Made by a program: the position numbers and the translations under genes
NCBI GenBank assembly: GCA_017499595.2
Contig: CM039001.1
Location: 2,418,001-2,482,000, forward strand
Length of the DNA stretch: 64,000 nt
From: Psilocybe cubensis
Taxonomy: Eukaryota
Direction: 5' to 3'
Notes under the pieces: generated by a model
Told to the model about the DNA's origin: nothing
The model's database searches: none
Seen by the model: the letters and a program-made list of their open reading frames with translations, nothing else
In this document: one piece after another, positions 17,214 through 42,169 of the stretch
Position numbering within the stretch: position 1 is the first letter of the stretch
Layout: each line of letters opens with the position of its first letter

Positions 17214-17470
17214 CTAAGTGCAGTTCGGCTTCTTTACGAATTGTATCCTTCATGCGTCTATCTAGTGCTGAGAGCTACTGATGTTAATAATACAAATAAT
17301 GAAAAAGTATGTGTCTACGAAGCAGGTGTGGTTATACGATGGCAATGAAAAGTAAAAGAAAGAAAAAACAAGAAATGAAGTAATTTTCCAACAAAGCGGG
17401 ATAGTAAAGCAATGCAATTCAACCAATTTCTAATTTTGCATGAGGTCCAAAATATGGTGAGCGGGAAACC

Positions 17471-20400: not shown

Positions 20401-20835
20401 GTCGTCAGTACCAGCTATAGACGAAGCACGAGAGCTCATGATGTCCGAATCATGGGTAGATAATGGATATGGCAAAGGTGTTGGTTTATCAAAGCCTTCT
20501 GGAAACTGGACAATTTTCGGAGGCCGATGCTTGTGGTCATCATGATCGTTCAGGGAGATGTCGACGGTGTCGGAGTGCAGCTGGTCGCGCTTCTCTTGCT
20601 GGATGACATTGTTCAAACTGGACGAGGATATATCACGGGAGATGTACCCGGGAGGAGCCTGTGAAGAAAGAGGGAAATTTGCAGCTGCTTGATATTCACG
20701 AAGGTCAAGGCCAGCTGGACCACGATTAGGATTTTTCAAGATTCCCTGGACCATATCGTCGGCGGAGGTAGACCGAGAGGCAAGAAAATGGGAAGCCTCG
20801 TCGGCTGGGGCATGGTTGTTGTGACGACTAGGCAT
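17471..20835 (-). CDS. MscS-like mechanosensitive channel with EF-hand (Msy1/Msy2-type), multi-exon
   Basis: Several TM helices, FHRTAYKERI, EF-hand FDKDNNGDLSRAE, SLSSVYTLGIAASFIFKNAASSAFDSIMLLFVT(H)PYDTGDRVII, NVRRSGK. Confidence 0.9.
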
Positions 20836-21084
20836 GGATAATAGTGGGTGCGGGAGGGCCGCTGGAGGTAAAAAATTGATTTGCGATGCTTTGACTTATA
20901 AGTCAGTAGGGTGATCGAGTTGGGGCCCCTTCGGCTAAATAGCGAGGTTATTAATAACACGCCAAGTGAATCTGAGATGCTGCATTGTGTGGAAGGAAAG
21001 ATGCACAACAGTGAACAACTAGCACTAGTGTTAGTAGAGAATAAGTTGAAGCATCACTCTCAGCCAATCAACTCGCCCCAGCTA

Positions 21085-21092
21085 TGACGTCA
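21085..21092. promoter_or_regulatory. CRE/ATF-type palindrome TGACGTCA upstream of coiled-coil paralog 1
   Basis: Perfect TGACGTCA about 55 bp before ATG 21146. The same motif with a following GCCCCT lies upstream of paralog 2. Confidence 0.4.
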
Positions 21093-21145
21093 TGGCCCCT
21101 GTCCTGATAAATACTCGCCAGTCCATCCACTCTCCTCACACCACC

Positions 21146-21850
21146 ATGGCTACTGTCTCGCGAAACGTATCTGTAAAATCCACCTCTCCAGAAATAATCA
21201 AGAAAATCGAACAGGAAATTGTCAAAGAGGCAAAAAACGAGGAGCGCAGCCTCAAGGACGTCGTCAAGGACCTACACCGTGCCGAGAAGGACACCAACAA
21301 AGCCCACAAGGTATGCCTCCTCGTATATTCAAAATTCGGCGCTCATCGAGTATATCAAGTCTGCTGTCAAAGCTGAGAAGGCTCTCGAAAAGGCAGAAAA
21401 GAGAGAGCAGAAAACCCTCAAGAACCTCTATCGGGCGGAAAACGCCCACAACATCGCTCTCGGTCACGTTACCCACACCCAGCATGAATTTGAGGTGATG
21501 CTTTCAATTCTACGAGCATAGCATCCGACTGACTCTTAGTAAGCTGGCGACCAAGAAACACACCAAGATGAGAGAGTTACTCCAGGCCAAGACAACCAGG
21601 GTCGATGAGGCTATGAAAGCAAATGACGAACATACGGTATGCCCACCAAGTACCATCAAAGAAATTCACATCCGACATTTGTCTGTAGAAAACCCGTAAT
21701 GCAAGACTTGCAGCACTGCAGGGCCCTTCCGCTACAGAAGAAGCGGCCAGGGTGGTTCCTGACCCAACCTCTGTTCCTCCCAAAGAAGTAGGGACCGCCA
21801 TTCCAGAAACTGTAATCACACAACCCAACGGTGTTCGGGTCAACAACTGA
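21146..21850 (+). CDS. Small lysine/glutamate-rich coiled-coil protein, paralog 1 of a tandem family (4 exons)
   Basis: SPEIIKKIEQEIVKEAKNEERSLKDVVKDLHRAEKDTNKAHK|...LKNLYRAENAHNIA...EFE|...DEHT|KTRNARLAALQGPSA. Sequence and intron positions are shared with the genes at 51079 and 52469. Confidence 0.8.
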
Positions 21851-22269
21851 GAATATTAGCTACTACCATACCCCATTTCCTGTCGCCATTACTTCCTTTT
21901 TGTTCATTTTCATACCCTACTAAATTCATACCTTTATGCTAATAGGAGCTCTGTAGACAGGATGCTGTCATGTACATGCATATAATAGTCATATACCAAT
22001 TTTAATTCCCTTTGTACTGTGTGGAGCTTCGATGCACAGCTCGAAATCACCCATCAGCGACATGCGTCAAAAGAAGGCCACTGTGGGAATAAAAAACAAT
22101 ATTTATTAATGGACCATTTTCCTTAGCATATGGTGTTGCCACGCAGCAGAAATACCAAAATATTTGCGGCAAATTATGCCGGTAGTTATTTGTCAAAGTC
22201 GCCCTAAATCATGATGTAATGAACGGGGCAGAAATTGGGTTGACGACATTCGGATAAGAGCGAGCCTAG

Positions 22270-22590
22270 AAGCGCCCCATATTTAGTGGTTCCGGCACGC
22301 ACCATATTCTGGGTAGGGCGGCAAGCCCTATTTTTTGGCGCTTCGGCACGCACCATATTCGCAAGCACCGTATTTCGGCGCTTTGGAGCGCACCATGTTC
22401 GGGGTATGGCGGCATGCCGGATATTTCATGCTTCGGCATGCGCCGCGTTCCCGAGCACCATATTTTGGCGCTTAGGCAAGCACGGTATCGCTGCCACCAT
22501 GTTTTGGTGTTTGGCACACGCCATATTCAGGATATGGCAAGCATCATATTTTAGTGCTTTGGCAAGCACCATATTTCAGTGCTTAGGCTA
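22270..22590 (+). repeat. Left subterminal array of degenerate ~24-bp repeats (GGCA[AC]GCACCATATTT..G[CT]GCTT)
   Basis: Roughly a dozen variants of gcaccatatt, e.g. ggcacgcaccatattc and ggcaagcaccatatttcagtgctt, about 190 bp inside the left TIR. Confidence 0.8.
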
Positions 22591-22888
22591 ACAGCTCTTA
22601 TAAATGTTTTATAAACCATCCTAATATGATGAATTTTAGTACAGCAGATTTTGAAGTGTATCAGACGATAGAGCGAGCAAAGAATTTATTGCAAATAAGC
22701 AGTAGAAGAGTATAAACGCGGGCCAGATACATTAAAAAGGTTTAAAGTAAAGCAAAAGAGGACATGTTAGGGGAATAACCCAATAGCCTCACGGAATATC
22801 CTGTTCAGTAAAAACAACTAATAAGAAAGACTGCCACCGACGTCAGTGCATACAGTAGCGGCGGCGTATTCAGCCCTTTCTTCCTTCT

Positions 22889-23460
22889 TCAAGTGGTATG
22901 CTTCTGACGGACAGACCTACGCAGAGGCTGATCTAAATGTTAGCAAATATTACTGACCATTAAAACATGATTATACCAAGTTCTCCTTTTCGCCCTCGTT
23001 AGGATCCGCAGCCCATCTCTTACGTTTTTTTCCAGCCTTCTCGTCAACCGGTTTTGACAAATTGTCAGCCAAAACACCTCCATTGCGGGCATTTGGGCTG
23101 GTGCTGGGTTCCGTAGAAGGGTTTGCAGGATCAGTTTGAGTTTCATTATTGACCGTTGTTGATGAGTTTTTGTTCGGGGTGTTATTGCTTTTTGAGGGGA
23201 GATTCTCGTCATCCATTGAGATTTCAGTAATAGTAGAAAGCTCGCCATACAAATATGCAGACTGTACAATCATCACAAGTATAAGCAGAAGGAAAAAGCG
23301 GTTATAGTCAAAATTAAGAGCATACATTGAATGCTGGCTTGCAGGGAGTTTTTCGCTGGAGGCGTGGGGGTTTTGATGTAAGCTGATTTTCCGCCTGCGC
23401 CTGCATGGCTTGTAATGAATTACTGCCCCCCGCTGCTCGGAGCGGAGTTTGAGGAATAGG
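22889..23460 (-). CDS. Low-complexity coding exons: either the 3' end of the RTC4-like gene or a separate small cargo gene
   Basis: ORF 22971-23327 (DDENLPSKSNNT...KKRKRWAADPNEGEKENL) is bordered by splice-like sites; a last exon reads PLRRSVRQKHTT*. Confidence 0.4.
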
Positions 23461-23557
23461 GCATGATGGCTGAGGAGTATGGCACCTCGGTTGTACTTGC
23501 TCTATTGGGGCCTAAAAGAAGAAAGAATGTTTAAGCAAAGGGCAATAAATGCAAAGA

Positions 23558-26500
23558 TTAAAAACGATAGAATACTTCAAGATATTGAGGATTTCGCTTT
23601 AGAAGTGCTGAAAAAACTTGATGTAGAAAGTTATCCACGGAATTCATCTCATCATTATCGTCAAGATGACCGTGATACAACTTCCCAAATGATGCACTTT
23701 CCCTCCGAATTTTGTCGGCGTCATCGTAGGCACAGTTCATATCTTCCATAATAAGCAGGTTGACAACGTGGGGGACCATGACCATGTCGAAAAATGATTC
23801 AGCGTTGAACGCACGACTTTTACGCACAGATTCTGATAAATTTGTGAATTCATCCCAAAACCTATATGCATCCTCTGACGAATATGCTGCCAAAGCGTCC
23901 TCTTGTCCAGAGATCTGTTCCACCGGAGATTTGAGTCTGTACAAACCTATGTCAAACGTACTGTCGACGAGCAACTCGGTAACATAGTTTAAATCGCCGT
24001 CTACAACAAGCTGAGTCCAATAGCTTGCAATCAGACTACGCACAATAGGACCATAGCTAGCCAATATTTTAGTTACGTAGATAATATATTGGAAGATGCA
24101 ATGAACGTACTATCCTGCAGATGCCACATTATAACAATACGGCGCTCTCTTGTCTAGTTGATTTAGGAATGATAATTTTGGGGTTTCGCATTTAAGAAGC
24201 ATTAAGCCCACAAATCTTCGCCATGGCAGAGATGTTTCGAATCTTGCACAATCCGTGCCGGAGCCTTCGAATATCATAGGGAAATTGTGCTTTACGTGAA
24301 GCTCAGCGATACGGTTGGCTACCTGGTCATAATCAATCTCGGCCACCGGCCAACCATTGCTGCGTGCAGCATCCAGCGAACTTGTCAGTCTCTCTTTGGA
24401 TCTGAAATAAAGGTGGCTGCAGAGGAGCTGGCTTTTGAAGGACATATTCTGGGCTGCCTTGAGACGGTTGCGATTGTTGGCAAGGCGAAACTGGGCACGC
24501 GCAACGGCATACTCTTTCATTATCATTTTCAAAGAAATATCTATCTCATCTTCAGGCGGGATTGTGTGATGGGGGTCGTCGGATTTAGAACAACCTTGAT
24601 GAGGGCATGATTTGATAGAAAGGTAATCCGAGCCATCCAATACGATCTAGACCGTTAAGAGGGTCAGCATATACCCAATAGAGACGGTCGACACTGAAAC
24701 AATCCTGTACCTCATTCTTCTGGAACGTAGCCTTCGGCTGGGACGTAGCCTTCTCCTGGGACGTAGCCTTTGGCTGGGACGTAGCCTTCGACGTAGCGTT
24801 CTCCTGGGATGTAGCCTTGGCCTGGGATGTCGTGTTCTCCTCAGAAGTAGCGTCTTCGCTGGGCGGAATAGTCTAAAGGTACGGTGATCTTTCAGTCAAA
24901 AAACAGATAGAGTGTGTAGACTTACCGTTGATTGTGATACCTCGTTATTACCGTCATTTTTCTGAGCGCATATCACGAGCACAGGGGTTAGAAATGTAGA
25001 AAGATACCGGCACATTTTCGAATGCAAACCTTTGCTTTCTTTTTGGCTAGTTCCTCAGCCTCAAGACTCGCTGCTTCAGCCGAGCGTTTCTGCAAAATGT
25101 GAAGTTAGATAAAGTAAACAATATGCCATCCAATTAAACAATACATACCATACGCTTAATCTCATGTATAGATTGCAAAGATTTGACTACTTTGCTCTAG
25201 AGTACGTTGAATAAGGCACCTTTTGAGGAAAAAAAAAACAAAAATGATAGCACACCTCTTAGAATGTAGTAAATTGTTAGTAGCAAAAAATTAGCATAAT
25301 AAATAAAAATCATTCGTTACCAACTACGGTACCGTTAAATTTACGCGGCAAAGTAGCTGTGGAAGAGCCAATCTCCTATACAGTAGTCATCAGCGGTGTT
25401 TGTATACTGAAGGCATGTATTTCCTACCTTTGATTTCTGAGAATAAAGATGTACAATAAAATGAAGCGCAGCGGTTGGTAAGATATGAGCCATACCTCTT
25501 TAGACGTACGCTCTTTTGAAGCGTTGGGGTCAGACTGTGTGGAGGCCTTTAGAGGCTCTGGGGCCGGAGCTCGATTCTCTTTTTCAACTTCCTGAAACTC
25601 GGGGTTTAGGCATAAAAATTAAAACATTGGACTTAAAAAAAACACACACATTGTGAGCTTCAGGCTTGGAAGAACCGGGTTTTCGTCCTGCTTTGGACTT
25701 CGCAGTTGGCCAGTGGAACTTGAGAGTGGAAGCTTCTTCTTGCACAGGACTGGGCAAGGCGGTCAAACCAATTGCAGGAAGGGCAGTATTCTTATTCTAG
25801 ATAGCATTCTGTTAAATTTATAACCCACGGCATAATCATGATGCTTGGTACCTGTATTTCAGAGTTAGAACGAAGCGGCTCTTTGCCTGTATTCTGGATT
25901 TTCCCATATAAACATTGAGCAAAGAATGGGAGGCAAAATTATAGAAAATAAAGAGCACCTTGACACCCTTGTTGGCCTTGGCCTTTGCAGTCACTTTTGA
26001 ATTTAAGACTTTGTCCTCTTCATCGGATTGATCGCTCTCGCTCTCAACAAACTTAAGCTTGCGTGCCTTACGCGTTACAGATCCAGGGGTCTTCATAATC
26101 GATCGTGGAGGAGGCTTGGATTTGGGAGTTGATGAAGGGGAGACGTGACGCTCTTTTTGCCGACCGGTCTTTGTGCGAGAATCTTGAGGTTTAGCTGATT
26201 CTGCACTGTTGCTGTTCAGCGCGGGTTTTGATGCCTTTTCCTAAGCACACTCCAAGGTCAATTACACCGGCATGCATTAAATTAACGCCAACTTACACGA
26301 GTAGTATCTTCTTGATGGTGTTCCTTGGACTTGCCTGCCAAATCCTCGTTGTCGGAGCATTCCTTGTCATTGGAGCATCCCTCGTCATCTTTCGCGTTGT
26401 TGAAGACATTATTGAAGTTTTCCTCGTCGTCCGAGCTGCAACTAATATTGTCCATCTCTACTTCAATGGGCCCAGAGTCATTAGCAGCCGTTCCATCGCC

Positions 26501-27404
26501 AGCTTCATCTCTAAGGACCTCAAGACGAGCGCCCTGAATGGTTGCACACGCCTTAATATATTTCTTGATGGCTTCTCGGTCAGGTTTCTCCTGTGAGTTC
26601 TTTTCATCCTCTATATCTTTGGTGGCTGTTGCAGAAAAATGGCTAAGAAACTGTTTCAAAAATTCGTCGATGGGCCAGGCGTGACTATATTTGCGAAAGA
26701 CCTTGGCATTTTTAATAGCCTGTACTCATTTGGGAGTTAGTAGATTATACGTGCTTAAATAGTTTTTGAGTGAATCACATACGCGTTCTTTTGCACATCT
26801 TATCTTGTCTCTTGATTGACGTCTAAACGGTTGGCGAACATCCAGGTACTGGAAGGCAGCTAGCTTGACTATCCGCTGAACACAACGGCATTTTGGTCAT
26901 CATGGGCGCACGTAACATCTGCATAAGAAGCTCACATTGAGACGCAAGTAATGTTCTTTTGTCAATCCCATGGCAAGCTCGAGGTTAAAGCCACCAAAGG
27001 CCTCACCGCGTCCTGCCTGGCCAACGGGACGAGGTATTAGCCTATCATCCTCTTGGTCTTTAGCTACCTTGCGTTAGAACATTTAATCCGTCATTTTAAA
27101 ATCAACACGCACATAATTGATATTTCAGGTCTTTTACAACCTTGTCTTTCTCTGCTAACTCTTTTTCTTTCTGAGCCAATTGCTTAATCAGCTCTTCTCT
27201 TGAAAGTAGGTGGGGTTCCGAGGAATTTTCAGCCCCGGAGGGGTTTGCTTTCGAAGAGTTTTCAGGCCCGGTGGAAGGGTTGGGGTTTGCTTTCGAGGAG
27301 TTGTCAGGCCTCGCGGCGGAAGGGTCGGGGTTTGCTTTTAGGGGTTTTGCAGGCCTGGCGGCCCTGGACGGGTTTTGATATGCTTTCGATGATTTCGGCG
27401 GCAT
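23558..27404 (-). CDS. Transposon-cargo protein with a C-terminal RTC4-like domain and an N-terminal small helical domain (many exons)
   Basis: Spliced SAGY|YGPIVRSLI and FFDMVMVPHVVNLLIMEDMNCAYDDADKIRRESASFG match the RTC4-like pattern GYYG...VLVP....LI.ED......A..I..ES..YG. N-terminal exons read IPRPVGQAGRGEAFGGFNLELAMGL...YLDVRQPFRRQ...WPIDEFLKQFL. Joining these into one gene is inferred. Confidence 0.6.
24722..24860 (-). repeat. Coding minisatellite of ~18-bp units encoding (E/P)KATSQ repeats
   Basis: Repeated gggacgtagcctt on the + strand, read as AAGGCTACGTCCC (KATS) on the - strand. Confidence 0.75.
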
Positions 27405-27663
27405 GGAAGCTAGGAGGCGAAAGTAGTCGCTGTGTACTGTTCAGTTGAAGTTTCAGAGGTATATAACGAAGCGTTGGCGGAAAAACTCGGATGCATTGCC
27501 CAGCTAAAAGATAATATACGCTAGTCCTTATTTGGTAGCGTTATACGCGGGGGCGCGATGTTTGGGGTATACGCTCACGTGAGGTTGTTCTAAGCGTATA
27601 CCGGGCGGTTTGCGTCGATTTCAACTTCCAAGTCCCAAAAGCCCAAGTCCTGACAAATACAGC

Positions 27664-28249
27664 ATGTCCTTTAACGTGAGTTATTTCTCCGGAGGCCATT
27701 ATGTTACCTAAACAACCGATGACATTGGGCTAAAATTCTATACAGAAACACAACTGCGTCAATTCTGCAGACGGTAAACGTCCCGATGCCCCAGTCGACG
27801 TACCACCAGCGAGCCCAGCGTGCATTTGTTGCGTTTTACTTCCGATGGCGGGCCTTTTGAATACGGATTCGGTTGATAGCACCTGCTTGCAGCCAACCAA
27901 TTCCTCAGATACTACACCCACGGAACCTGCTTACCGCCAGCTGCCCACTGTCGAATGCGTCTGCGGCTGTATATCGCTCCAGCAAACAGCCCACGCTGCG
28001 TCCAGCAAACAGCCGCATCAAGTTAAGAAAAAACCAGTCCAATCAATCCCGCTTTGGCATGCCTTTGTGCAGCAGGTACAACCTGCCGTCCCTCCGAAAC
28101 AGCAAGCAATAGCCTCATGCCAGAATCCTATGAAGGGCGGGGTAAAACGGCAGGATACCCTTATTGTTGAAGACTTGCCTAGAAAGGATATAGGAGGAGC
28201 GAAACCCCGTTCTTTAAAGCGTAGCAATACGGAAATCTTCATTTTATAG
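27664..28249 (+). CDS. Small Cys-containing cargo protein of unknown function, divergent from the RTC4-like gene
   Basis: ATG followed by a GTGAGT intron, then an open frame ...PACICCVLLPMAG...ECVCGCISLQ...KRQDTLIVE...LKRSNTEIFIL*. Confidence 0.5.
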
Positions 28250-28321
28250 TACAATAAAGCTTTGGAGCAGAAATAATATACCTACATGCGTTTATGCTAC
28301 AAATATTATTCCCCGGCTGCT

Positions 28322-31300
28322 TCAAATTTGAATATCTGCTAAATTGTCAGAAGCACTCAGGTTAGAAAGCAGTGTGGTCATACCAGAAAGAGGTAAAGTC
28401 AGCTGGGAAGTAGCCCAGTTGTTGATGGTCACCAGCCGTTGTCGATCTTGTGAATGACTAGTCTTGCAAAGATGATGTTTAGACAGATAGGTCTTAGACC
28501 ACGCTTTGATATGCTCCTGCTTGATAACAACATTCTTGCTGCGACAAAGAACATGTTGATTGATGTGAAGGCCGGCTTCCCATGCGCAATCCAAAATGAG
28601 AACTTCTTCTCCCAGATAATCTATCAACTCGCGAATGAACCAAGCAGTCCATCGGCAGTCAACAGGCGGAAAGTTAAACCAGTGCTCAAGGATGGTCGAA
28701 CAAAATTGCAGAACGCAGGTCTTCGAAACGGTGTTATACTTAAAAGATCGAGGAGCGTAGACGTAAACAGATTCTCTTGGTTGAAACCCGCTGATAAAGG
28801 AAGCGGCGTCGAACTCTGCATTTGTTTGTACAGCCAAAACTTCTTCAACCCGTCGAACCAGTACACCCAAGCCATTTGAGATGTCGTCCTTGCTACGATA
28901 GGCTTGCTCGAGGACGCTGTCCAACCACTCCCATAATAGAACGTTGGAAAGGAGAAGCTGCTTTTGTTGGAATTGGAGATCAAGTTTCGAAATTGTCTTC
29001 TTCTGGCTGTATGAAGCGTATAATTCGCAGGCTCTACGAATGTCACCTGAAATCACAGGCTGACTGAGAATTTCAGATATCAAAGACACGTCAAGCCACT
29101 TTGACTGCCCTTGAGAGGGAGTGTTATCGATTGGGAGGCGTTTTAAAGCAGCCAAAATTTTTGATATGCATTCTGGCCTCAAAGCATTCAAAAATTTGCT
29201 TGTTCCTATACAAAAAAAGCGGTCAGAAACCTTGAATTCAGGCTGAAACAGCGGAAAAATTGAACCAACCTAGGGATGTTACCGAACTGCTATGCCGGGT
29301 AATTCGTTCTTTAGGAGCAGCATTTTTCTTGGAAGCTTATAGTTTTGTTTGCACAGCGGACATTTAGTAAGGTTTGAACTGACGAACCTTTCGATTTTGT
29401 GACCGTAGAATCTCTGTCTCCATATAGATTGTCTTCGAAGTTCAGATTGATATCTGGCCCGGAGTCGCTTTCGGGATCCTTGCGATGGCTCATTCGGCGA
29501 GCCTTGCTTGAGGTCAAGGTTTCTAAATTTTTGCTTGTAGATATTTGAACTCGACGGAGACAATAATATTTTACATACGTTGTGATGTATTTCTACGCTT
29601 TTTGATATGTAAATCCATTTCAGAAACATCCCTAGTCCGTGCCCGTTTAACCGCTCCTGTGCATGTGTCAGTTATCAGGACGATGAAAGCATAATAAAAG
29701 TAAGCAACTAACCCTTGCGCGAACCTGTTTTGCTCTGTAATCCAATCACGGCTTCTTCGTCGTGGTCTCCAGCGGTTACACACAAAGGAATAGACTTTGC
29801 TGAGCTTTCCATGTGTTTTTTCCATTCTTGTACAGCCTCTTGGAGTTCAACGTTACCGTACGGTGCTTCGGACATAGAATCCGAGTTACAAAGCCTTGCA
29901 AGATCCTCTGACGAAAGATCCTCGATGGATGAAACGCCTAATCCACTAAGGATGCCTGAGTAGTCGGTACCGATTTTGACATCATCGCCTCTCCATCCGG
30001 GACCCAGATCCCACTCATCCGCCGTAACTCTCTTATTATCGATAACCACAGAAACCATTTTCATGGCTAACGATTTATCAACGCGTGGAATCAATTCCGG
30101 AGGCAACTGACGGGCAAAATGCGTGATTGCTTGGAGAAGAAGTCGACTGAAGTGATTGATATGAGCCTTAGGAGAAAGTAAAGAACCTCCGTCCGCAGTC
30201 CATGTAGCTTGCTTGCACATTGGCGTCTTCGATAATTTGTGCGACCTAAATTTCATTTAAGATGCTGGGCATGATGTAACGTTTATGCTGACAGACGTAC
30301 ACTGGATTTCGCATTTCAATACCGATGGCAAAAGTTGTATCATTAACTCCAGCCGCAAAAGCGACGCTATCAACCCCGTCAATTAGTTGACCAGGAGGGT
30401 AACCGATGAGAGTTAGGCGATAGTAGATTTCGTTGGGTTGTTGGACGTAAATGGGTTGATGACCTCCATGGAAATGGAGACCAGAGAAAAATATGACGGA
30501 AAACTCCTCCATGAGATACGCCAATCCGCAGCATAAAATGTAAAAATTTTCAGGCGCCACGTCGGCCCTGTAGCGACTGAGAACGTGCATACAAGTTGGA
30601 GCACCTGAACTGTCGGCAGCGTCAACATGTGCCATCCCAAATTTTCCGAGCGAGGATTCCAAGGCAACATCTAAGCCAAAAATGAAGTTCAGATTGTATA
30701 ATAGTTATGCGGGACACACCATGCTGTGGAACTCCAGGAGCTACATTCAGTTGCCAAGACGGCCAGACGCAATTATCATCATATCCTACTGGCGCTAGCG
30801 AGGCCACCTCGGCTTGACGCTTCAGGCGCTGGAACAAATGCTTGGATGCTTTCTTAACTCCTTCAATACCAGCTTTTGCCCCAGCCTGAGAATGCAATCA
30901 ATTGACGTGTAAAACGTTCAGCGAACGACGTACTTGAAGTATATTGAACCGCATTTGCAGATCATAATCCCTGGCCTGAGTATACACTTTGCTCTGAACT
31001 CCTGGAGCGCTGAGGGATTTCTGTGCCTGTAGGGTTGATCCAAGGGTGTAGCATCGAGGACCGGACTTGATATTAACTGCGCGATCGCTTCGTTCAAACT
31101 GAATACCCCCCGAGTACTCTCCGTTTGTGTCCTTAACGGGTTTCTGCGAAGACATAAGTTCTTGAGGCCCCAAGATTTCTTCCTGAAGTCTGCGGCATTC
31201 TTGAAGGTCTATTGGATCTCGCTCATGTCTGACGGTTGTTTAATCACAAAATCAAATGCAAAAAAAAAGATCCTTACTTGCTCAGTGTCCAGGATTTAAG

Positions 31301-31979
31301 TACATCGTCTCCAGGAAGCCCCGAACCGTATCTATCGCGTTCTAAATAAAAAATGTTGTCGCTTGGTTTTATGTATAGCATTCCTGAAAAATAGAAAAAC
31401 TGTCAATGCCAGCGGGTGAATTACAGAAAGGGATCAATCGCCTTGCATCTGTCCTTCTGCTGCAGTGCTCGGTACCTTCAAATTAGCGGAGTAATGAAAT
31501 CTACGCCTCATCGCGTCCATTGACCAATCTGCAATGCCCAGGATGATCCGGGCGTTGGGGTCGTCGACTTTAGGATGTGATTTAAGTTCATATAAAACCG
31601 GAAGCTGAGGGTCGCGTCCGACAAGTTCCGTCATAAGGCGAGAATCAGCAGGAGGGTCAATTTCAATGCGGTTGTCGTGAGAAGGAGGAGCGACATCCGA
31701 TTGTTCAATAGTCGCATCGGTCTGAGGTGTTAGACGTCCCGTCGTAGAAATGGATTCAGAGGGAGGATGTGGCGGAATGCGGTTGTCAGAAGCCCGAAAT
31801 GTAGGGTTCGATTGCCCCAAAGTTGCTGCTGTACGAGGCATCCGGCGTTTAGAACCCTGGGTCGGGGAGGGCGTCGACGCTGCTACCTTGCGACGCAATA
31901 CCGGCCGGAGCGACTTGGGTGGAGGAGCGGCCGGCGCTGACGCGACTGTACGACTTTTACTTCTGGTCTCTGCGGGCAT
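28322..31979 (-). CDS. Large 2-oxoglutarate/Fe(II) dioxygenase, TET/JBP-like (multi-exon)
   Basis: Double-stranded beta-helix signature: SWQLNVA, HxD in FGMAHVDAADSSGAPTCM, distal His in IFFSGLHFHGG, 2OG-binding Arg in YRLTLIGYP; preceded by FERSDRA...PRCYTLG. This arrangement is typical of transposon-linked fungal TET/JBP proteins. Confidence 0.72.
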
Positions 31980-33023
31980 CGGAAATTGGGGGATGGAAGG
32001 GAAAGAGAGCGGAAGAACGAATGACAACCAATTAGTCTGGGCAGCTGAGCATAACAATAACGGGCACGTACCGGGACTCGGCGAGAAATTGAAATACAGA
32101 ATGTCAATTCCACCCGCACCTCATGCAAACGGTCTCCAATCCGCCTCCATTTTTCAGGCACGTACCTATGGCCCGTTTCTTTCCACTTTTGTTTCAAACT
32201 TTTGTCTCAAATTTGTCTGACCTCCAAGTACAATTAATACGCTTTATAAAAGTAAGGACGCCCCAAGAAAGCGCCATTTTGTCCATAGTAAGGGCAAGTA
32301 GGTGCCTGTAACCCTGGAAATCATTCCGCCGCCCCACCGTCGATTACTTAGGCTGTGACGTCTACGGTAACCAGCCCTACGTACGTATGGAACTAATGCG
32401 TGTGTAGATATTCCTACGCGCCTACTCGGTCATCCGAATACATACAGATGGCTAAGATGGGTAAATAATGTACGATAATCTTTGTATATACGCCGTCGAT
32501 CAAATTCAATTCGAGTTTGAGACCGCGCTGACCTGCCGCCGCGCGAGTAAAGCAGGAGTACAATCTATTTATCGGGCTGGCTAAGATCACGTCTGGGTAC
32601 TGATATGCAAATGACGACATACCGGGACCAATCCGCCATGCTGGCTCTTCGATGTCGTCATACGTTATTGAGCGGGCACTGCTGCTGCGAGGCGCAGACC
32701 AGCATACCCCCTACAACTGTAGGGTAGGAGGATCAATGCATATCCCTTATTCTGAATTTAGAAGATAAAGGCGCGATCGACTTGTGCGCGCGCCCAATTA
32801 ATTTGTCGCGAGTCGCTGCCTGTGCGTACTTACCAGTTATTATAATCGAGCGTTGTCAATACGGTATACACTAGTTACAAAGACGCAACAGATTTTCTAA
32901 TTCTGCCTAGGTATCTCTACTAACTAGACGGTACGGTTTTCCTCCTCCCGTATTGGGCATGTTGGCGGAAGAGAGAAGAAGGAAACCGTGAGAAAGTGTT
33001 GAATTGCCCAACTTGACGCACGG

Positions 33024-33067
33024 GATTTCGAAATCCATGCCGAGTGTTCGGCATGGATTTCGAAATC
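33024..33067. repeat. Perfect hairpin (20-bp arms, 4-nt loop), copy 1
   Basis: gatttcgaaatccatgccga-gtgt-tcggcatggatttcgaaatc. Confidence 0.95.
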
Positions 33068-33287
33068 GCCGGGTACTTATTCCCGATACTGGCAAAAGAC
33101 AACTCTTTTCCGATCCTCTACCACTCAAAGGCGTACGCTGCCGTAGCGCGCGCGGGGGGCATAACGATGTCGATCGTAGATTAGGTATATATAATAGCTT
33201 AGATCGTACACATTTTATATACATGAAGTCGTAGTAACATGATATTCCTTCCCAGAAAACATCGACGCGCATCGATTCGTCTCGATC

Positions 33288-35932
33288 ATGAAGCGGGTCG
33301 GTACACAGGGATATCGCAACAGATCAAAAACTGATAGATTTCATTGAAGCAGCGTTCCAATGTCCGGAAAAATGTCGCTCAATTTCTGGATGTAGAAGCG
33401 GGAGTTGACGATGGCGAGGAGGCGGACTCCGGCGAGGAAGAGTCTGAACAAGAACTAGACAGTACGCGCCTATCTTATCTATTCTCCTGGGCAGCGCATA
33501 CCGCGAACACCATCCTTACAAAACAATCCTAGACGAGTTTCTCGATGAACAGGAAGTCGACGGAGTAGACGTCCACCCTCGGTCGCTGGATGAATATGCT
33601 CAAATGAACGACGAAGCTCTAGAGGCGTTACTACTGCGATCCAAGGAAAGAAGCCTTGCGGAATCAAACCGACGAAAATCAAACTGTGTAGACGCAGCAG
33701 ATGATATATTTTCTCCCAGTTTTTTGCCTGTATTAACTGAAGCGGATTTTCCCCTGTGGAAGGTGACTTGTCGCGTAAGTTCTACCCTACGCGTCTTGTC
33801 TACTTGTTATGTTGACGTTTCCATAATATAGGTTGGCAGGGAAGAATTGGCTATTGCATCTTTACTATTAAATGCTCAGGACAAGCACAAAATTCGATCT
33901 GCTTTTTCTGTTGAGAGGATGAAGGGATGTATATTTTTGGAAACACTTTGGAATCCCAATACCGTCGATCTGTTGAAGAAGACTCCGGGCGTTTTGGTAA
34001 CAAAGCGAGGCGTACAACAATCATTAGTTTTGCCTGACGATTACCGAGAAATACTTCGGGGACAAGGCAAAATCTCACCCCCAAAACGTGGATCCTGGGT
34101 CACCGTCTCAAAAGGTGCATATTGAGGAGACGTCGCGCTGGTGAAGGAAACAGAAGGGAGGCTTGTACGCCTGTTAATGCTTCCTCGTCTTCCCTTACCC
34201 GGTGCAAGCAGGGTCACCAAAAGAAGGAAGACAGACCATTCTGGAGATTCTGTTCTTTGGTCGAAGACGCAATGGACGGAGTGGTTGAATTCTCAAGGGC
34301 GCTCCCATCAGGTCGTAGAGCATACGGAACACTGCTGGCAAATAGGGAATACTCTTTTCGAACATGGACTGATGATTCAGGACATTGGACAGGATTCTAT
34401 CGATGTCGTCGTCGAGGAAATGCCCTTTCGTTACTTCCGGCTTTTTCAACAATCTACGCACAGCTCCCTGGACTCCTCATACATGCTACGTCCCACCGAG
34501 TGGAAATTTGAACCTGGAGAGGCCATTCTGGCGGCAAGTATTGAAGGATCGCAATCTAGAGAAGCCTCTGTAGTCGCTATCCATCCGTACTATTTAGAGG
34601 TGGCATACACAACCCATGATTCGCATAATATCGCAGATACCTCGCTGGTGCCGTGGATTCGCGTGACAAAATTGTTTCAACTCGGCGATTACGTTTCTGT
34701 ACAGAGCGGGGAAAATCAGGGCGTTGAAGGTTGGCTAATTGCGAAAACAAATGAGGCGGTCGTGATAGGACTTTTCGACTCGGACCTTCTGACAATCCCA
34801 AGTTTGCAAGTCTTGGACAATATACAGGTAAGACTTCGTCCTTTTCACCTTGAGTAAATTTTCTGACAAAACGTTCGATATTTAGACAATAGAAGCGCCT
34901 ATAAACTGGGTGCATGTTTCAAAAGCTCCTTTTCAACATCGGATGAAAGAAAACAAGAAAAAGAAAGTTGAAATCCCTTCTGAGGCTCGTCATTTTTGGT
35001 GTGATACAGAAGTTTTGATATCAAAACAGCATCATCCTATGAAAACTCGCCGAGGCAAAGTGGTGGACGTTTCGCCTTCCGCTGATTCTATACAAAACAT
35101 GAGAGTGCTAGTAGAGCTATTAGACTACCACGCAGCCTGTCCTTTTCAAAAAATCCTTTTAAATTACGGCGACGTTGTTGACGCAAGGTAACGCTTTCGA
35201 TTCTTACACCGTATGACGCTGCGAGATCGACGTTAATAAAAGTTTAACAGGACGCTTTTGCCTCTTGGAGATCGACATGCCTTTGATGGGATGCCTACCC
35301 TTCTTAATAACCCTGACAGATCTGTCGACACTCTATCACAGTCTGCTGAACGATCTGGTACCCCTATTCCAACCAGCCCAATCGCCGACGGGCAATGGGA
35401 TCCTTCAGCACCGTTACCCCACAATCCTCAATCCTCAATGTCGCCCTCGGAATACTCTCATCCCTCCCACGTTCTATTCAAAGAAATGCTGGTGGGACAG
35501 AAAGTCGCCGTCTATATCAAAGGGGGTTCATTCAAAGATTCCAAACGACATTACTTCGTAACTATCGCTCGAGACGAAAGAAACCATTTCACATTGCTTT
35601 TGCTGCGCCAAAAAAGGCCTTCAATGACTCTACAGCCAGAATGGGTTACGCCAAAGCATCCCAGCGGGACTCACACTAACGACCTGCTGTTTGTTGTTGA
35701 TGGAGAGAACCAACACCAATTTGTTCGCCGGATCGCTCAGCGAGACTTAGTGAACCAATCCCCTATCCTTTTAGTCAATCCGGTAATGAGGAGGGAAGGG
35801 CAATCCGATATTTTATGCGGGGTTCCTTTTGAGGTAGAATCTACTGCGTTAGTCATTGTGGAGGAAACAGACTTGGAGAGACGTGCGAGAGATGCGCTGA
35901 TGGCAGATTTGAGAAAACCATGGCGCTGCTGA
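33288..35932 (+). pseudogene. Spt5-like (acidic N-terminus, NGN and KOW domains) cargo gene with an in-frame TGA at 34123-34125
   Basis: QFLDVEAGVDDGEE...EFLDE, LWKVTCR|VGREE, IRSAFSVERMKGCIFLE (NGN), RGSWVTVSKGAY*GDVALV (KOW1-like), FEHGL, KLFQLGDYVSVQSGENQGVEGWL (KOW). ORFs 33847 and 34141 are in the same frame and separated by one TGA. Confidence 0.72.
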
Positions 35933-36319
35933 TATGTATCTCACTCTAATGTAAATCGGCCGGACCCAATTCGCGGAAACGAATATATCTGTTTATTAAG
36001 GCGTTGGCATTACTGGCTTCTATAGCTAGCTGAAACTAAAATGCGTATCGCGACGTAAGTATCTTCCGGTTACGTTTGCTTCCTTGGATCAGGTGGCGTG
36101 GGCAATATTTATGTTATTTCACGCCAGCGTGCGTGTTGAGTTTTTGTTCGAGCTTTGTTTTTTTTTGCTTCAGCTCTTTCCCCCTTGCCCGCCTTTTGTT
36201 CGTAAATCGTCAGTACTCGATACTCAGGCTTTTGACAATTAAGGTAACTTTCATGTGCTTATCAAAGAGCTAGCATAACAATCTGATGTGCGGGTTCTGC
36301 GCTGCTTGTAGCAAACACA

Positions 36320-37166
36320 ATGTGTCGAACTCTCAATGCCTGCCACCGAGGGGACAAAAACATAGTCATTTCTGTGCTGGATCTCTGTCGTGACACACGA
36401 AACTACGGCGGTATGCCCTTCATCTTTCTCAGAAAGTTTACGCTGCTCATTGCCAATCATCACACATATGCAGAGGGAGTTGAGGTGCTACAATGCTACC
36501 TAGCGGACTGCTATGAAAAGAACACCGCGCTTTCACAGGATGATGTGCAACTCTTTGCAGACTTCTTGCAAGACTACGTCCAATGCGTGCGCCGCTCTTG
36601 GTTATCAATTTCCCGACCTAGGACCATCCCACCGCCTGGACCTTCAGCTGCCGCCCGCCAGATCCTCAATGACATAAAAAAAGATGACCTGATTGTTTCT
36701 TGTATCAAGGCCCTTGAGATTTCTTTTGACCTCTCAAGGCTTGCACCACGTCGCAGCCGGGCATATATTTTGGTCATGGTTCTGTAAGTCAAGGGCTGTC
36801 TATCAGAGCATTCTGGCTGACCCTGAGTACCTTTTAGAATTTCAACATTCCTTCTGGCTGTATCAGAGGTGGCTGAGAGGTCTGAAGGTCGGCGCTATAC
36901 CCTGGAATCTTTCAATTTTCTCCAACGTGCAACCCGTGAAGCTCGACAAGCAGGTATCTCGCGTAGAGACGCAGTCTATAGAGTTATACACACTCAAGTT
37001 GGATCGCTTTTCAGCTCTCTGTAGCTGTTTTGTTTGCCGCTGTTGTTGCAGAATAGGTTTTGTCTTTAGCATCCAACAATTGTTAATTAGTTGTCGTACG
37101 TTAACTGCCAATACATCTCCCCATCAATCTACAGCCTGTAGATTTAATCTGCCACAACTATGGTGA
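36320..37166 (+). CDS. Uncharacterised cargo ORF(s)
   Basis: 155-aa helical-looking ORF 36320-36787 overlapped by ORF 36693-37166; no family recognised. Confidence 0.35.
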
Positions 37167-37564
37167 ACCAAGAGCATGATCTATATAGAACGGTATGCAG
37201 TAATTATGTTTGTTTCTATCTGCACAGTATGCACGCATATCATTCTAGCTTGACAATACCTTAATTGTGATACTAGTAGTTGGATAGCCGGTACCCCTAT
37301 ATTTTGATGACCCTGTTCCGCTGACCAGTCATCAATATAATAGCACTATGTCACATACGCCAATGACTGCTCTTATGTACCGGTTGCGAAGCCCTGAAAC
37401 AGCTTTATAACCAAGGGCCTGTCACTGCTTGTTAGTCCCGTCTTTATATACCTCGACACTGCTTAATCTCTGGCTGCCATAGCTCTCAATTGAACCTCCT
37501 CGACGATTGGATTGATTTCTCTGATTCTAGTTAACTTGCTAACACCTCCCGACCCATAGTTGCT

Positions 37565-38080
37565 ATGGATGTGGCTCAACATTGCGACCAAACTCGCGTC
37601 GATGTCCCAACACCTGAGTCAAACACCTTTCCCGTCCTCTCAAATCGTAATGATTCCCACTTCCAATATCAGTTACTCAATCTGGCAATGACCTGCGATA
37701 CGGTTTTTGGTCTTACCAGGGCGGCAAATGCGCTCCACAACCTCTTGTTGGAGAACTCTGGGATTCTCGAAGAACGTATTATAACTTGCAGTCGATCCAT
37801 GGTCGAAGAAGCGGCTGAATTCGCGGATAACGACGTTGTGAGGGCCTCTTCTCGCTGTGTGTTGGGCGTGAAACGCACGTTCTGACCACCCTTTCATTCA
37901 GTTTGAACTTGCCACTATCCTTGCTGCTATCCCCTCGGTCAACTTTCATTTGAATATGGATCTAATTCAAGATGCAGCACGTGCCGTCTATGTCGCAGCT
38001 GGTCTACGCCGAGACCTAGATGTTCGTTGAATTCCTATTCCTCTGATTCAAATTAACCATAAGCTAACGTCACGGGTCTA
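37565..38080 (+). CDS. Uncharacterised small cargo protein, probably 2 exons, convergent with the transposase
   Basis: 106-aa ORF from ATG 37565 and a probable second exon (FELATILAAIPSVNFHLNMDLIQDAARAVYVAAGLRRDLDV...). Confidence 0.4.
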
Positions 38081-38149
38081 GGAAGCGTTGAAAATATGCA
38101 GCTTGGCCTTGACAAAAAAAGAGTGAATTGTTTATGCAAAGCTTATTTA

Positions 38150-41100
38150 TTATACAGCGTCGTCGTCAGGCTCCTCAGAGTCGCCTCTGTCAACAAATAT
38201 AGTCCGCGAATACTCGTCGCTTCTATCTACAATTGCCCACCCCTTTTGTTCTCGATATATTCTTCCAATGACGTTTGTAATTGACTGTAAATCGAGCGCT
38301 ATCATTGCCCGCTTGTCTGATTCCCTGAAGACCGTAAGGGTTTTTGCTGCATTTTGCCCATTTGTTCTGTAGGGAGTCACAACCGCCAGCAGCCGAAGGG
38401 ACCGCTTCCACAAGCCCCAGAAATCATCGCCCGGGACGTTGAATTCGAGAATTAACTCCAAACGTCCGTAACAGATCTCCGCATTCTCGCGTATAACATT
38501 ATTATTCCGGTCCTTTGTTACGCCAAGTAGTTCATACTGGCGGTAAATATCATGCCCGCAGTTAATAATCAGTCACATTTAGGTATTTTTCCAGGAGTAA
38601 GTTGTCAAAAACGCACCTTCACCCAGGATCTGCTTCTTTTATTTCCAATCTCATGCTCTGAATGTACTGCTATCCTATCCCCGCCCATAATCCTGACCTT
38701 TCCCCAACTTACTAACGTCTGAGGAAGCCTTTCTTGGATTGAGCGGGGGCTCTTCTTGATGATTGGACTAATATATTCCGCAATTCTTTGTCTAATGTCA
38801 CGGCTTGGCTTGTACGCTTTGTTTTGTGGCGGCATAAGGATAGAAAGTGGATCTAGTATTATATTTATTTGTTTAGGAAGTTAAAAATATTTTTGTAAAG
38901 CATGATATATATGATATTTATGGTCAACTCACATTGCGCATATAGGTGTTCACGTTCTTTCACTGAATCTCGTGTACTTCGAGAAGGAACCCCGTGCGAC
39001 TTTAAGTCGTACAAGTTGTCAATCATAGACAGATAAGCCCTGTTTATGACAGCGTTATCCAAATTTGCCCATGGACTGACGTGGGATCGAAGCTTGGTTC
39101 TCATAAAACCGCAAAACCGCTCCATCCAAAACGTCCAAGTAGCCCAGACAGGTCCACAATAGCGTATATTATCGCATAAGTGTAGCATGCCGTGAAGAGT
39201 TAATACACACATTGGCAGTCGGTCGTATTTATACTGGTAGTAAAGCCTGCAGACAACATCGAAGACTGACTTTAAATGGGCACTGATTTATGCTTACTTT
39301 TCGTAATCCTGGACCCAGCTTGCAATGCCTATTTCGAGCGCGCTAAGATCCGCACGCGTCATGGTCAAGGCTGTTAACTTTTTCATAATGTTGACCAGTC
39401 GAATGAAGTGATGATAATAGATTTCTTTCTTAAATCTGTCCTTCAGAAGAAACGGGGCAAGGTATATAAACCAAAATGACCATCCCTCTGCATTGAGATA
39501 CTTCTTGTTGTTGTAGGGGTTTCCGAGCGCCCCGACAAAATACGAGGGTATCCACTGGACGGCATATTCAGACTCTTTCGCAATTTCTTCCCATATATGC
39601 CCTGGGATTATGAAGTCATATTCCTCCTCGTCATCAAAGCCCTTGAACCTTCCCAGCCAGAGATCTACAAGATTTTTGACTACATTTAGGAACAAGAGAT
39701 GCATGTAGTCCCAGGGCATCCCCCGAGCGTAGTCCAGTGATTGCACACGCTGAAGTGCAGGCATTCCCTTAATACCCGTTTGCATGGCTATCTCTCCTCG
39801 CCGCTGCGCAGTTGGCGTTTGTAGCATTCTTTCTGTGGTAATTTGCCAGTCGACATGCTTTCGCAGCGGTAAATTCAAAGGATCATAAATTTTCTCTCGA
39901 CGGGTTGCCAACAGCGGCACATAATAGACCCCATTTCTTTTCCCGGCAGGCTTGTAGAGCGCTCCATGGATTCGACATGATCTACACGGACACAAGCCGT
40001 TGTGCCCTTTAATCTTAAGAAATTTTTCCATTGCGACAATATCTCCGGTTGTAAAAATACAATAGGCACGGAGAAGAAAGATACTGCGAGTAATGCAATT
40101 GAAGGTTTTGATGCCTCTGGCTAGCGTCGCCAATTCATCGTCAAAAGGATAGAGGAACGATGTAAGATTTTTGGGGGCGTTTGGCCCTGGAACAACCCCA
40201 AGACAAACCACACGTGCTGAATGAGTCCTAACGTCCGATGGTAAGCTTAAGATTTGCACAAGTATGGGCATCGCGGATGGTCCACTTGGCCTATATTTGT
40301 AGAGGAGGAAGCCGTCCATACATAACGACAGCGCAATATCGGTAGGAGCGGAGAAGTATTTATGTGGAAGCTGTTGTCCGTCAACGACAACGTATGTTCT
40401 ACGCAATTTCTTGTAATGTCCGCAGTCAAACACATCCTCAATATCGTCCGAATCTTCCTTGTTATCGTACATGTTCTGTCTATAAGACAAAAGGTTCGCC
40501 GTTTCTGGATTTGCAAAAAGTGCCTGGAGTTGCGGTGATAGTGGAATATAACGGAAAATTCGACGAGATCTGCCTCGCGAATCAAAGCGTGGTTCCCGGC
40601 AATAAAAACATAGATTGTCGTCCTTGAATTCTCCCGTGTAAGCCTTGCACGAATTAATGCAACAATCGATTATTTGCGGCACAAGGTCTGACAGCTTAGC
40701 CACACGATTAACCGTGGCTTTCCAAGAACTTAACGGCATGCGATGGCCAAAATAGTAGCGCATATCATCATAGACGGCGCGGGAAAAATTTGACATGATT
40801 CGAAACCTGAAAGCCTGTATATGGTCTACGTCCTTTAATGTGAGACTATGGCAACCTGTGAAGCATACAGCTAAGTCAAACGCATACTGAAAATCAAAGA
40901 ATGTCAATAACTTACTATGCTCCATGACATCTATAAGGTCGGAGTTGCTGTCACGATCACTCCAATCTGAAGTGTCCTCTACATTCAGTTCCTCCTCAAG
41001 AGCAATCCTTGCGGCTATTTCGTCTTCCTCCACATATTCAAAGCTAAAGTCGTCTGGGTGGTCGGAAGGTTCGCCGGGACCCTGGGTTGAACCATCACTG

Positions 41101-41879
41101 CCCGTTGTAGAGTTTGAAATTGTGTCGAGGAAATCATCTCTATGGAGAAAATTGTCTGAACTAACAGGGCTCTCAAGGCCATTGTCGCTTCTAGCGGGTG
41201 TTTCCTCGTTCAATCGTTGGATTGGAATGTGAGGGCTTGTATCTTTGGCCTCATCCTCATCCTCATCCATTTGATGAAGTAAACCATCACTATAGTGCGA
41301 ATTTTCCAGGCTGACAGGGGTATCAAGGCCGTCATCCCTTCTTGGAGGAATATCCACATCCAATCGCAGGATTGAAGGCTGAGGGCTGGTATTATTTTGG
41401 GGTTCATCCTCATCCATTCGATGAAGGTCGCAGTTAACACGAAATTTACCTTCCGGAAGACGGCGCTGCTCATCCTCATCCATCTCACTAAGCTCTTCAT
41501 TAACATTATATTCAGCTTGGGATATATCTGAACGGCCCCCAGCGCCCGACGAATCTTGTTCTATTAATAGGTCTGAGTCGTTATCACCTCGATATCTGTG
41601 AAGTACTATAGATCAACGGTCCAAGTTTAATGCGATTTTGATAAATACAACATACTGTGGACTATGATTTGAACGATTTATAGCGTCGGTAGAATAATCA
41701 GTTTCCTCCTCAGTGTCGGGGGGTGGTGTCCTTCCAACCATCCTGTAATGTTTAGCCCGAGTTTGACGCGAAATGGGCTTTCCCATACTACGGCAGTTGA
41801 GTGCGCAACCACAAAGCACCTTTCCAGTTCTTTTGCGGCGGCGAGTCTGACGACGCTTGCGATGGGTAGTGCGACGCAT
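38150..41879 (-). CDS. CACTA/En-Spm (Transposase_21, TnpD-like) DDE transposase, apparently intact, with introns
   Basis: N-terminal CxCxxxC...H, DCCINSCKAYTG..C.YCREPR, YIPLSPQLQALF, IALSLCMDGF, GPNAPKNLTSFLYP, GDIVA, GHNGLCPCRSC, DYMHLLFLN, LHGMLHL, GPVWATWTFWMERFCG; 729-aa uninterrupted core ORF. Confidence 0.92.
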
Positions 41880-42118
41880 CGATAACTAACTTTACATACG
41901 AGTATATATGAATTAAATTGAAAACACGATACACCATGCGTGAAAGCGACGTACTTGTGTACGAATTCAGTACGGAATGTTCTTATCAAATTTCTCGATC
42001 CTATCTATATACTGGTGCTGTGTACTACTGAAGTTTACTAATTGTCGTTCGTTTCATTATAGTGTTAGAAGGGAAAGGAAGAAACCCTTCAACCACGTGC
42101 AAAGCAGGAGTAAGTACG

Positions 42119-42169
42119 CCGCTATTTCGAAATCCATGCCGAGCATCGGCATGGATTTCGAAATAGCGG
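42119..42169. repeat. Perfect hairpin (24-bp arms, 3-nt loop), copy 2
   Basis: ccgctatttcgaaatccatgccga-gca-tcggcatggatttcgaaatagcgg; the core is identical to the hairpin at 33024. Confidence 0.95.

Follow-up and report, generated by a model that had tools for sequence, protein, structure and literature searches.

A very divergent TET/JBP-like dioxygenase gene beside a Tnp2/EnSpm-type transposase gene in Psilocybe cubensis

We analyzed a stretch of 64,000 nucleotides of the Psilocybe cubensis genome (assembly GCA_017499595.2, contig CM039001.1, positions 2,418,001 to 2,482,000 of the forward strand), referred to below as the window, which is fungal nuclear DNA with short introns. Between positions 28322 and 31979 of the window, a chain of open reading frames (ORFs) on the minus strand forms a multi-exon gene, with a transposase gene of the Tnp2/EnSpm type nearby. 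We consider it probable that this gene encodes a very divergent Fe(II)/2-oxoglutarate dioxygenase of the TET/JBP branch, which lies beside a Tnp2/EnSpm transposon and keeps the transposon expressed by removing or altering methylation. The assignment of the predicted protein as TET/JBP-like is supported by its fold and its catalytic motif, and not by sequence profiles.

In a word-based protein search with the ORF of one exon as a query (30704-30246, reading ...GMAHVDAADS...FSGLHFHGG...YYRLTLIGYPP...), four longer relatives were found, the closest of which was P0001, a 681-residue hypothetical protein from Psilocybe cyanescens with 65% identity to the exon. A tblastn search of the window using P0001 as a query returned a colinear exon set, and the six homologue-guided exons together encode 669 residues uninterrupted by stops, with 56.2% identity to P0001 across 640 columns. 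Of the six donors following these exons, five are GT and one, after exon 1, is GC, with AG at all five acceptors; we retained the GC donor because no other donor keeps the frame through which the homologues align. Since 7 of 10 long relatives (about 1200-1350 residues) matched the stretch 28457-28948, we assigned the 3' ORF of 315 codons to the same gene, which was annotated as follows:

28322-31979, minus strand: whole span of the TET/JBP-like dioxygenase gene (ATG 31979-31977, stop 28324-28322; tblastn of P0001 and 10 long homologues, stop-free spliced model)
31442-31979, minus strand: exon 1, N-terminal and mostly low-complexity, followed by the GC-AG intron 31441-31384
31278-31383, minus strand: exon 2 (tblastn, spliced model)
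30934-31228, minus strand: exon 3, in which the conserved oxygenase domain begins (tblastn, spliced model)
30720-30885, minus strand: exon 4 (tblastn, spliced model)
30301-30670, minus strand: exon 5, core of the double-stranded beta-helix (DSBH) with HVD, LHFHGG and RLTLIGYPP (sequence, family alignment)
29713-30245, minus strand: exon 6, helical extension, packed against the oxygenase domain in the homologue model (tblastn, AlphaFold model, spliced model)
29270-29712, minus strand: linker of short exons with ambiguous splice sites (78 canonical GT-AG paths lead to the final stop)
28322-29269, minus strand: last ORF, second conserved domain of the family, mostly helical, without a known fold match (homologue matches, domain hidden Markov model)

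Exon 5 carries HVD at 30629-30621, LHFHGG at 30479-30462 (distal histidine at 30470-30468) and RLTLIGYPP at 30419-30393 (arginine at 30419-30417), which in the numbering of the spliced model gives H383, D385 and H436 as the iron triad and R453 as the arginine for 2-oxoglutarate. Across 74 aligned family members, the first histidine is present in 74, the aspartate in 73, the distal histidine in 74 and the arginine in 68; at the carboxylate position, the single exception has N and no member has E. Conservation of the motif is beyond chance. With the triad and arginine spacings of solved TETs and of JBP1 as a yardstick, the hallmark of TET/JBP enzymes is HxD followed by a distal histidine and, about 10-16 residues after it, the arginine, and the window model shows this arrangement. 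An original prediction, made by a model from the window alone, had proposed a large multi-exon gene at 28322-31979, the same limits as those of our own model, with intact HxD (HVD), distal H and R residues in a DSBH-like block; the six-exon model with its terminal ORF and the located residues, kept across the 74 relatives, bear both points out. The family itself is large: an exhaustive HMMER search retrieved 892 representative clusters with an E-value threshold of 1e-3, 117 of them at 1e-30 or below. The ten members whose names were looked up (from Crepidotus, Panaeolus, Galerina, Coprinopsis, Pluteus, Tulosesus, Agrocybe, Marasmius and Arthromyces) all belong to the Agaricales and are hypothetical, uncharacterized, or named solely after another fused domain.

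We then folded P0001 using AlphaFold2 with the family alignment, which gave a predicted local distance difference test score (pLDDT) of about 95 over residues 190-620, and compared the model to solved structures. A Foldseek search against the PDB returned NgTET1 first (E-value 1.6e-6), followed by CMD1 (1e-4) and CcTet (3e-4), and in the structural comparison NgTET1 and TET2 were the best-scoring solved relatives, 3-4 Z units above FTO and PHD2. Solved TET enzymes are thus the nearest neighbors of the model in its DSBH fold. Of the first seven matches in BFVD, three carry names, and two of these are JBP1/TET oxygenase-domain proteins; in the ESM Atlas the best feature matches were Tet_JBP clusters (0.95). 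We also looked for a best structural match to a 2-oxoglutarate oxygenase with a substrate other than nucleic acids, or for a lack of the DSBH fold; neither occurred, NgTET1 being on top, and the earlier proposal of a TET/JBP-like enzyme stands on the fold of P0001 and the motif.

Family proteins are about 1200-1400 residues long, and full-length relatives have three conserved parts: first the oxygenase and the helical extension that belongs to it, then a helical domain in the middle, and last a tail some 320 residues long, of which at least 150 residues are kept in 27 of 35 relatives. The middle domain is kept in the window copy (E-value 5.7e-45 with its hidden Markov model) and folds confidently (pLDDT 84.2), with no match among solved structures. 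The tails of two relatives, P0024 and P0045, weakly match in Pfam the helical domain of 5-hydroxymethyldeoxyuridine (5-hmdU) DNA kinase (E-values 0.006 and 0.009); we offer as a lead only that the tail could share ancestry with this domain of the phage enzymes. In database models, family members are found fused with chromo, integrase and RNase H domains and in no case with Transposase_21; in one gene model from Agrocybe (P0113), an Spt5-like part is fused to a TET-like part.

Upstream of the dioxygenase gene, the following features were annotated:

33025-33083, no strand: left arm of a 59-bp inverted repeat, containing a perfect palindrome (33025-33043 / 33048-33066); located where the dioxygenase and Spt5-like genes diverge
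33344-35929, plus strand: Spt5-like gene with an acidic N-terminus, an NGN domain above the cut-off, and weak KOW and Spt5_N matches
36287-38123, plus strand: ORFs of unknown function, which one database model (P0168) joins to the Spt5-like gene
38186-41879, minus strand: multi-exon Tnp2/Transposase_21 transposase gene (ATG at 41879; 772-codon open exon 39294-41612)
42107-42164, no strand: right arm of the repeat, containing this palindrome as well, 228 bp ahead of the transposase ATG

The 772-codon ORF matches Transposase_21 with 36.6 bits against a cut-off of 28.6 (E-value 3.6e-9), and the next transposase exon has a weak DUF4218 match. Its relatives are named Tnp2 in Mycena and Ceratobasidium and include a peanut CACTA transposase (E-value 2.7e-11), and from 40826 down to 38186 the gene is colinear with residues 171-973 of a 981-residue Mycena Tnp2 protein. 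By sequence similarity, the transposase is therefore of the Tnp2/Transposase_21 (EnSpm) type, and it looks intact. Pfam has a separate model for Plavaka; a Pfam scan at E ≤ 0.05, read for Plavaka membership, returned Transposase_21 only. An En-Spm/Transposase_21-like partner had been proposed from the outset, and the Pfam score, the DUF4218-like exon and the plant CACTA relative support it. The 5' part of the transposase ORF contains two tandem copies of about 150 bp (70% identical, 41128-41426).

The dioxygenase and Spt5-like genes are arranged head to head and have a common intergenic region of 1.4 kb, which holds the left palindromic repeat. Where database models of the Spt5-like gene begin with Met, the window has TTG, and that exon contains no in-frame ATG. 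Three Psilocybe cubensis models match the gene with 79-99.6% identity per aligned segment and a fourth (P0167) with about 78%, so at least two Spt5-like copies exist. Two of the Spt5-like database models carry the source name "Protein RNA-directed DNA methylation 3". A literature search on Spt5 together with EnSpm/CACTA transposases in Agaricomycetes listed no paper that mentions Spt5.

The two arms of the inverted repeat (33025-33083 and 42164-42107, 90% identical, E-value 2.7e-14) are the only long-range repeat in the window and bracket 9.1 kb comprising the Spt5-like gene, the ORFs of unknown function and the transposase gene, the left arm lying 261 bp upstream of the Spt5-like gene. The 19-base half-site of the palindrome has four occurrences in the window, all of them within 33025-33066 and 42124-42164, against 0 expected by chance; the palindromic repeat could be a binding site for the transposase or a regulator. 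At the right arm, a further inverted pair (about 42104-42113 / 42211-42220) extends the palindrome into a hairpin of about 115 bp. To look for element termini, we scanned for terminal repeats between a left region (16000-33400) and a right region (41900-47000), with a duplication of 2-11 bp. This yielded 141 candidates, of which those with at least 14 of 16 matches all fell inside the palindrome but one, and no pair of Plavaka-type termini. The 9-mers shared with the right end cluster only at 32.5-33.5 kb. One pair considered as termini, CACTA at 32869 and TAGTG at 42060, was discarded as a chance occurrence, with flanks of ATA vs TTA and little further similarity. Beyond the arms, 135 bp away on the left and 72 bp on the right, stand the two copies of an exact 11-bp direct repeat (32880-32890 / 42236-42246). 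Two stretches of 300 bp would share about 0.02 matches of this kind by chance, and target-site duplications of CMCT-type elements are shorter than this repeat.

We compared contigs and reads from four sequencing runs with positions 24800-44700 of the window and found in them no contig or read joining the flanks across an empty site. In three of the runs (X8, X9 and X11), the dioxygenase block (24800-31439) and the transposase block have about 1.5-2 times the depth of the right flank (from 42064) or more, and the Spt5-like block is intermediate or equal to the right flank; in X11, for instance, depths are about 150-180 over 24800-31439, 126-170 over the transposase block and 82-88 over the right flank. 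The raised depth fits repeated DNA, without linking the blocks to one another or revealing a left edge: the blocks need not move as one unit, since depths differ among the three, and no left edge is seen, as the depth is still high at 24800. Since the strains may be dikaryons, depth ratios are themselves open to more than one reading. Three loose ends (32958, 42481 and 42537) were considered as element ends and rejected, as they are diverged alleles with small indels relative to the window. The segments 32670-32957, 37271-37342, 42282-42321 and 42538-42590 are replaced or deleted in other strains, and sequence rightwards of 32958 is conserved. In all four runs, matching sequence departs at 43892 and re-enters at 43891. 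This 2-bp overlap suggests that, relative to the window, there is either an insertion with a 2-bp duplication or a difference in assembly.

A number of these and further results weigh against a TET/JBP-branch enzyme that serves the neighboring transposon. Pfam returned 0 matches for the seven ORFs of the dioxygenase gene at E ≤ 0.1 and 0 matches for P0001 to P0004 at E ≤ 1, and the HMMER comparison with Tet_JBP that the original prediction had put forward as a check fails for the window exons and these four relatives. When 60 distinct homologues were scanned (thresholds from 0.001 to 1), a single one, the Agrocybe model P0113, matched Tet_JBP (PF12851), over the stretch from HxD to the arginine (E-value 6e-7), and its 29.3 bits are below the curated cut-off of 34.9, which was reached neither by the window gene nor by any of the 60. 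Searches of PDB sequences (phmmer with the exon, and two family profiles) returned chance or low-complexity matches and no TET chain, from a library that includes CcTet (7vpn, 7w5p, 8jkk), NgTET1 and TET2; at E ≤ 10 the family profile A1 had 0 matches and A2 had 38, none of them a TET chain. The fold was modelled for the 56.2%-identical homologue P0001 and not for the window's own spliced product, and the Foldseek E-values are modest, with plant 2-oxoglutarate oxygenases and FTO at 2-4e-4. In the proposed comparison with the Coprinopsis TET, CcTet is among the top Foldseek matches in the PDB, and its structural Z (13.0-13.7) is below that of NgTET1 or TET2 and, as for CMD1, no better than that of FTO. 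Splicing of the linker (29270-29712) is ambiguous, one intron relies on a GC donor, and the tail domain was not found in the window in any frame (best E-value 1.9 with all filters off). Two alternatives were weighed, both of which we regard as unlikely. The protein could combine a TET fold with another chemistry, as a JBP-like thymine hydroxylase, a CMD1-like enzyme adding a group to 5-methylcytosine (5mC), an N6-methyladenine (6mA) demethylase, or an RNA or protein oxygenase; the distance of the family from characterised TETs, too large for a sequence match, leaves room for this, as do the two extra conserved domains of full-length relatives and the weak kinase-domain matches in two of them, but NgTET1 and TET2, the two best-scoring solved relatives at 3-4 Z above FTO and PHD2, are 5mC oxidases. 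Or the window copy could be a decaying, non-functional relic, given the loss of the tail (about 320 residues, kept by 27 of 35 relatives), the required GC donor, the TTG at the Met position of the models in the neighboring Spt5-like gene, and the single-copy state in the run closest to the window. Set against decay are the 669 codons of the catalytic part, free of stops and frameshifts, with all catalytic residues kept, the open terminal ORF of 315 codons, and a CpG content that is not depleted (observed/expected 1.01 over the gene, a ratio that does not distinguish the region from its flanks).

Further contrary results concern the relation of the gene to the transposon. The dioxygenase ATG lies 1046 bp outside the left arm, and the terminal-repeat scan found no inverted termini with a duplication that enclose the dioxygenase gene. 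EnSpm/CACTA elements end in 5'-CAC..GTG-3' (or CACTA..TAGTG) within a 3-bp target-site duplication; next to the arms there is a CAC (33019) and a GTG (ending at 42171), with unequal triplets beyond them (ACG vs TAT). The run closest to the window shows the region as single copy, with a contig that covers 24800-39567 at a depth of 25.9, equal to the flank depth. Four metagenome loci with a relative of the dioxygenase gene have no transposase or Spt5-like neighbor, and their neighboring ORFs give one family match, a DEAD/Helicase_C pair. The earlier claim that the gene is carried inside the element is not supported as it stands: the only inverted-repeat pair found excludes the gene, and no enclosing termini turned up. 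It is quite possible, if short of an even chance, that the gene is a mere neighbor, a member of an expanded Agaricales family in a repeat-rich stretch, perhaps left there by another element, with the Tnp2 transposon (about 33.0-42.2 kb) beside it by chance. The repeats bracket exactly the Spt5-like gene, the ORFs of unknown function and the transposase, the metagenome relatives lack an adjoining transposase, database fusions are with chromo, integrase and RNase H domains (retroelement neighbors) and never with Transposase_21, and the copy is truncated in its tail domain, all of which agree with such chance proximity; the Spt5-like and TET-like fusion in Agrocybe speaks against it, as do published families that carry such genes (in the portions of PMC12730594, Kojima 2025, drawn on here), and the repeats, being without a target-site duplication, are not proven ends either. 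More tentatively, the gene could be a passenger in an EnSpm/CACTA element that is larger and reaches leftwards past 28322, with the 59-bp repeats as internal or subterminal binding sites. The same Agrocybe fusion and the position of the left repeat in the upstream region common to the two divergent genes would fit a passenger, together with the higher depth over 24800-31439 and the transposase block than over the right flank in X8, X9 and X11, and with the TET-bearing EnSpm and Plavaka families known in the Agaricales (same portions of PMC12730594). Opposed to it are the scan without enclosing inverted termini and a 2-11 bp duplication, the absence of a third palindrome site, the unequal depths of the blocks with no left edge and a depth still high at 24800, and the lack of an empty-site joint in the four runs. 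That the dioxygenase gene moves with the transposase appears doubtful to us, though far from negligible; it is favored because the left palindrome lies in the intergenic region common to the dioxygenase and Spt5-like genes, and because P0113 fuses an Spt5-like to a TET-like part.

From gene structure, motif, homologue fold, transposase type and adjacency, we infer for our preferred reading, a TET/JBP-branch dioxygenase acting in favor of the neighboring transposon, the following substrate and anti-silencing role. His383, Asp385 and His436 would hold iron and Arg453 would hold 2-oxoglutarate. In the proposed reaction, the enzyme oxidises the methyl group of a modified base that it has flipped out of the DNA duplex, the most likely substrate being 5mC, converted to 5-hydroxymethylcytosine and further. 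The gene would sit at the left edge of the Tnp2/EnSpm-type transposon, head to head with the Spt5-like gene, and its role would be that published for fungal transposon-linked TET/JBP enzymes, in which methylation marks on the transposon DNA are removed or altered so that the element stays expressed.

Among solved enzymes, NgTET1 and human TET2 show 10-13% identity to the P0001 model in structural alignments, and the family differs from them in a long disordered N-terminus and extra C-terminal domains, and it is not known to have a Cys-rich domain like that of TET2. Like CcTET and the AG-type enzymes (from Kyakuja and Zisupton transposons; Coprinopsis cinerea, Laccaria bicolor), the family has HxD...H...R, occurs in the Agaricales, is expanded and is linked to transposons. 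Unlike them, it shows no detectable sequence-level similarity to CcTET (family profiles against the PDB, E ≤ 10), its partner here is Tnp2 and not KDZ, and its members have about 1200-1400 residues with two extra conserved domains. Likeness to EnSpm/CACTA (Tnp2) elements lies in Transposase_21 above the cut-off, the DUF4218-like exon, the plant CACTA relative and CAC/GTG next to the repeats; the locus departs from them in having no 3-bp duplication at CAC/GTG, a 59-bp arm with a perfect palindrome instead of a short CACTA terminus, and an Spt5-like gene in place of a second element gene.

The nearest published counterpart is the study of Kojima (2025; PMC12730594). The portions used here describe TET-bearing EnSpm and Plavaka families in the Agaricales (Agaricus bisporus, Gymnopus confluens), place Plavaka in the CMCT clade together with EnSpm/CACTA, and propose transposon-borne TET/JBP as an escape from methylation silencing. 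They distinguish three types of transposon-borne fungal TET/JBP, namely PU, AG (near CcTET) and PE (hallmark HxE), report that CcTET oxidises 5mC and 6mA in duplex DNA, and give as Plavaka termini CATCA..TGATG (PlavakaB) or TGT..ACA (PlavakaA) with duplications of 2-3 bp. The TET-bearing EnSpm/Plavaka families described there and our locus both involve an agaric genome, an EnSpm-related CMCT transposase, a TET/JBP-like gene barely detected by profiles and the same proposed role. Theirs, as far as those portions go, are of the PE type with HxE, whereas ours has HxD in 73 of 74 members and HxE in 0, and their genes lie between defined termini with 2-3 bp duplications, whereas the window gene is outside the sole inverted repeats and no duplication was found. 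By the hallmarks given in these portions, our sequence data suggest that the family fits neither Agaricales type (AG, PE). The original prediction had set its EnSpm-type partner apart from the KDZ and Plavaka partners described before, but that apparent novelty is already in PMC12730594. Linkage of TET/JBP with EnSpm/Plavaka and the anti-silencing idea are likewise already published there, leaving as new at most the divergent enzyme clade and the Spt5-like companion. We found no paper on the family in the literature under CC1G_04144, A8NW52, or Psilocybe with JBP.

Directly downstream of the dioxygenase gene, an ORF chain on the minus strand (22974-27440) has a low-complexity, Pro/Ser-rich N-terminus and an RTC4-like domain at its end (E-value 9.3e-11), and it shows the same raised depth in the three runs. 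The left flank (1-20000) consists of ordinary host genes, encoding glycoside hydrolases of family 3 and family 35 (beta-galactosidase), an Fe/Mn superoxide dismutase, an adenosine deaminase (editase-type) and an EF-hand protein. On the right flank (43997-49254), ordinary host genes again comprise one with a Ribonuc_2-5A (IRE1-like) domain and a BCAS3-like WD40 gene, beyond which lie an 83-bp tandem pair (49689-49853) and, on the plus strand, a 977-codon ORF (55566-58499) with no Pfam match at E ≤ 0.001.

A bolder proposal, which we think rather improbable, is that the gene belongs to a type of fungal transposon-linked TET/JBP not described so far, a fourth one (HxD, unrelated in sequence to CcTET, invisible to Pfam, with two extra domains), and that it would move together with an Spt5-like paralogue borne by the transposon. 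The two would form an anti-silencing cassette, one part rewriting the DNA mark and the other keeping RNA polymerase II elongating through silenced chromatin. Transposon-encoded methylation erasers are one of the few known direct attacks on host epigenetic defence by a mobile element. With the general principle already published in the portions of PMC12730594 cited above, what is left of interest is the divergent enzyme clade together with its Spt5-like neighbor. The locus adds a large unannotated clade of TET-fold proteins in gilled mushrooms, missed by standard annotation, and a hint that such genes may be paired with an Spt5-like factor. Should the enzyme prove active, the nature of its substrate and products would tell which DNA marks matter in the control of transposons in the Agaricales.

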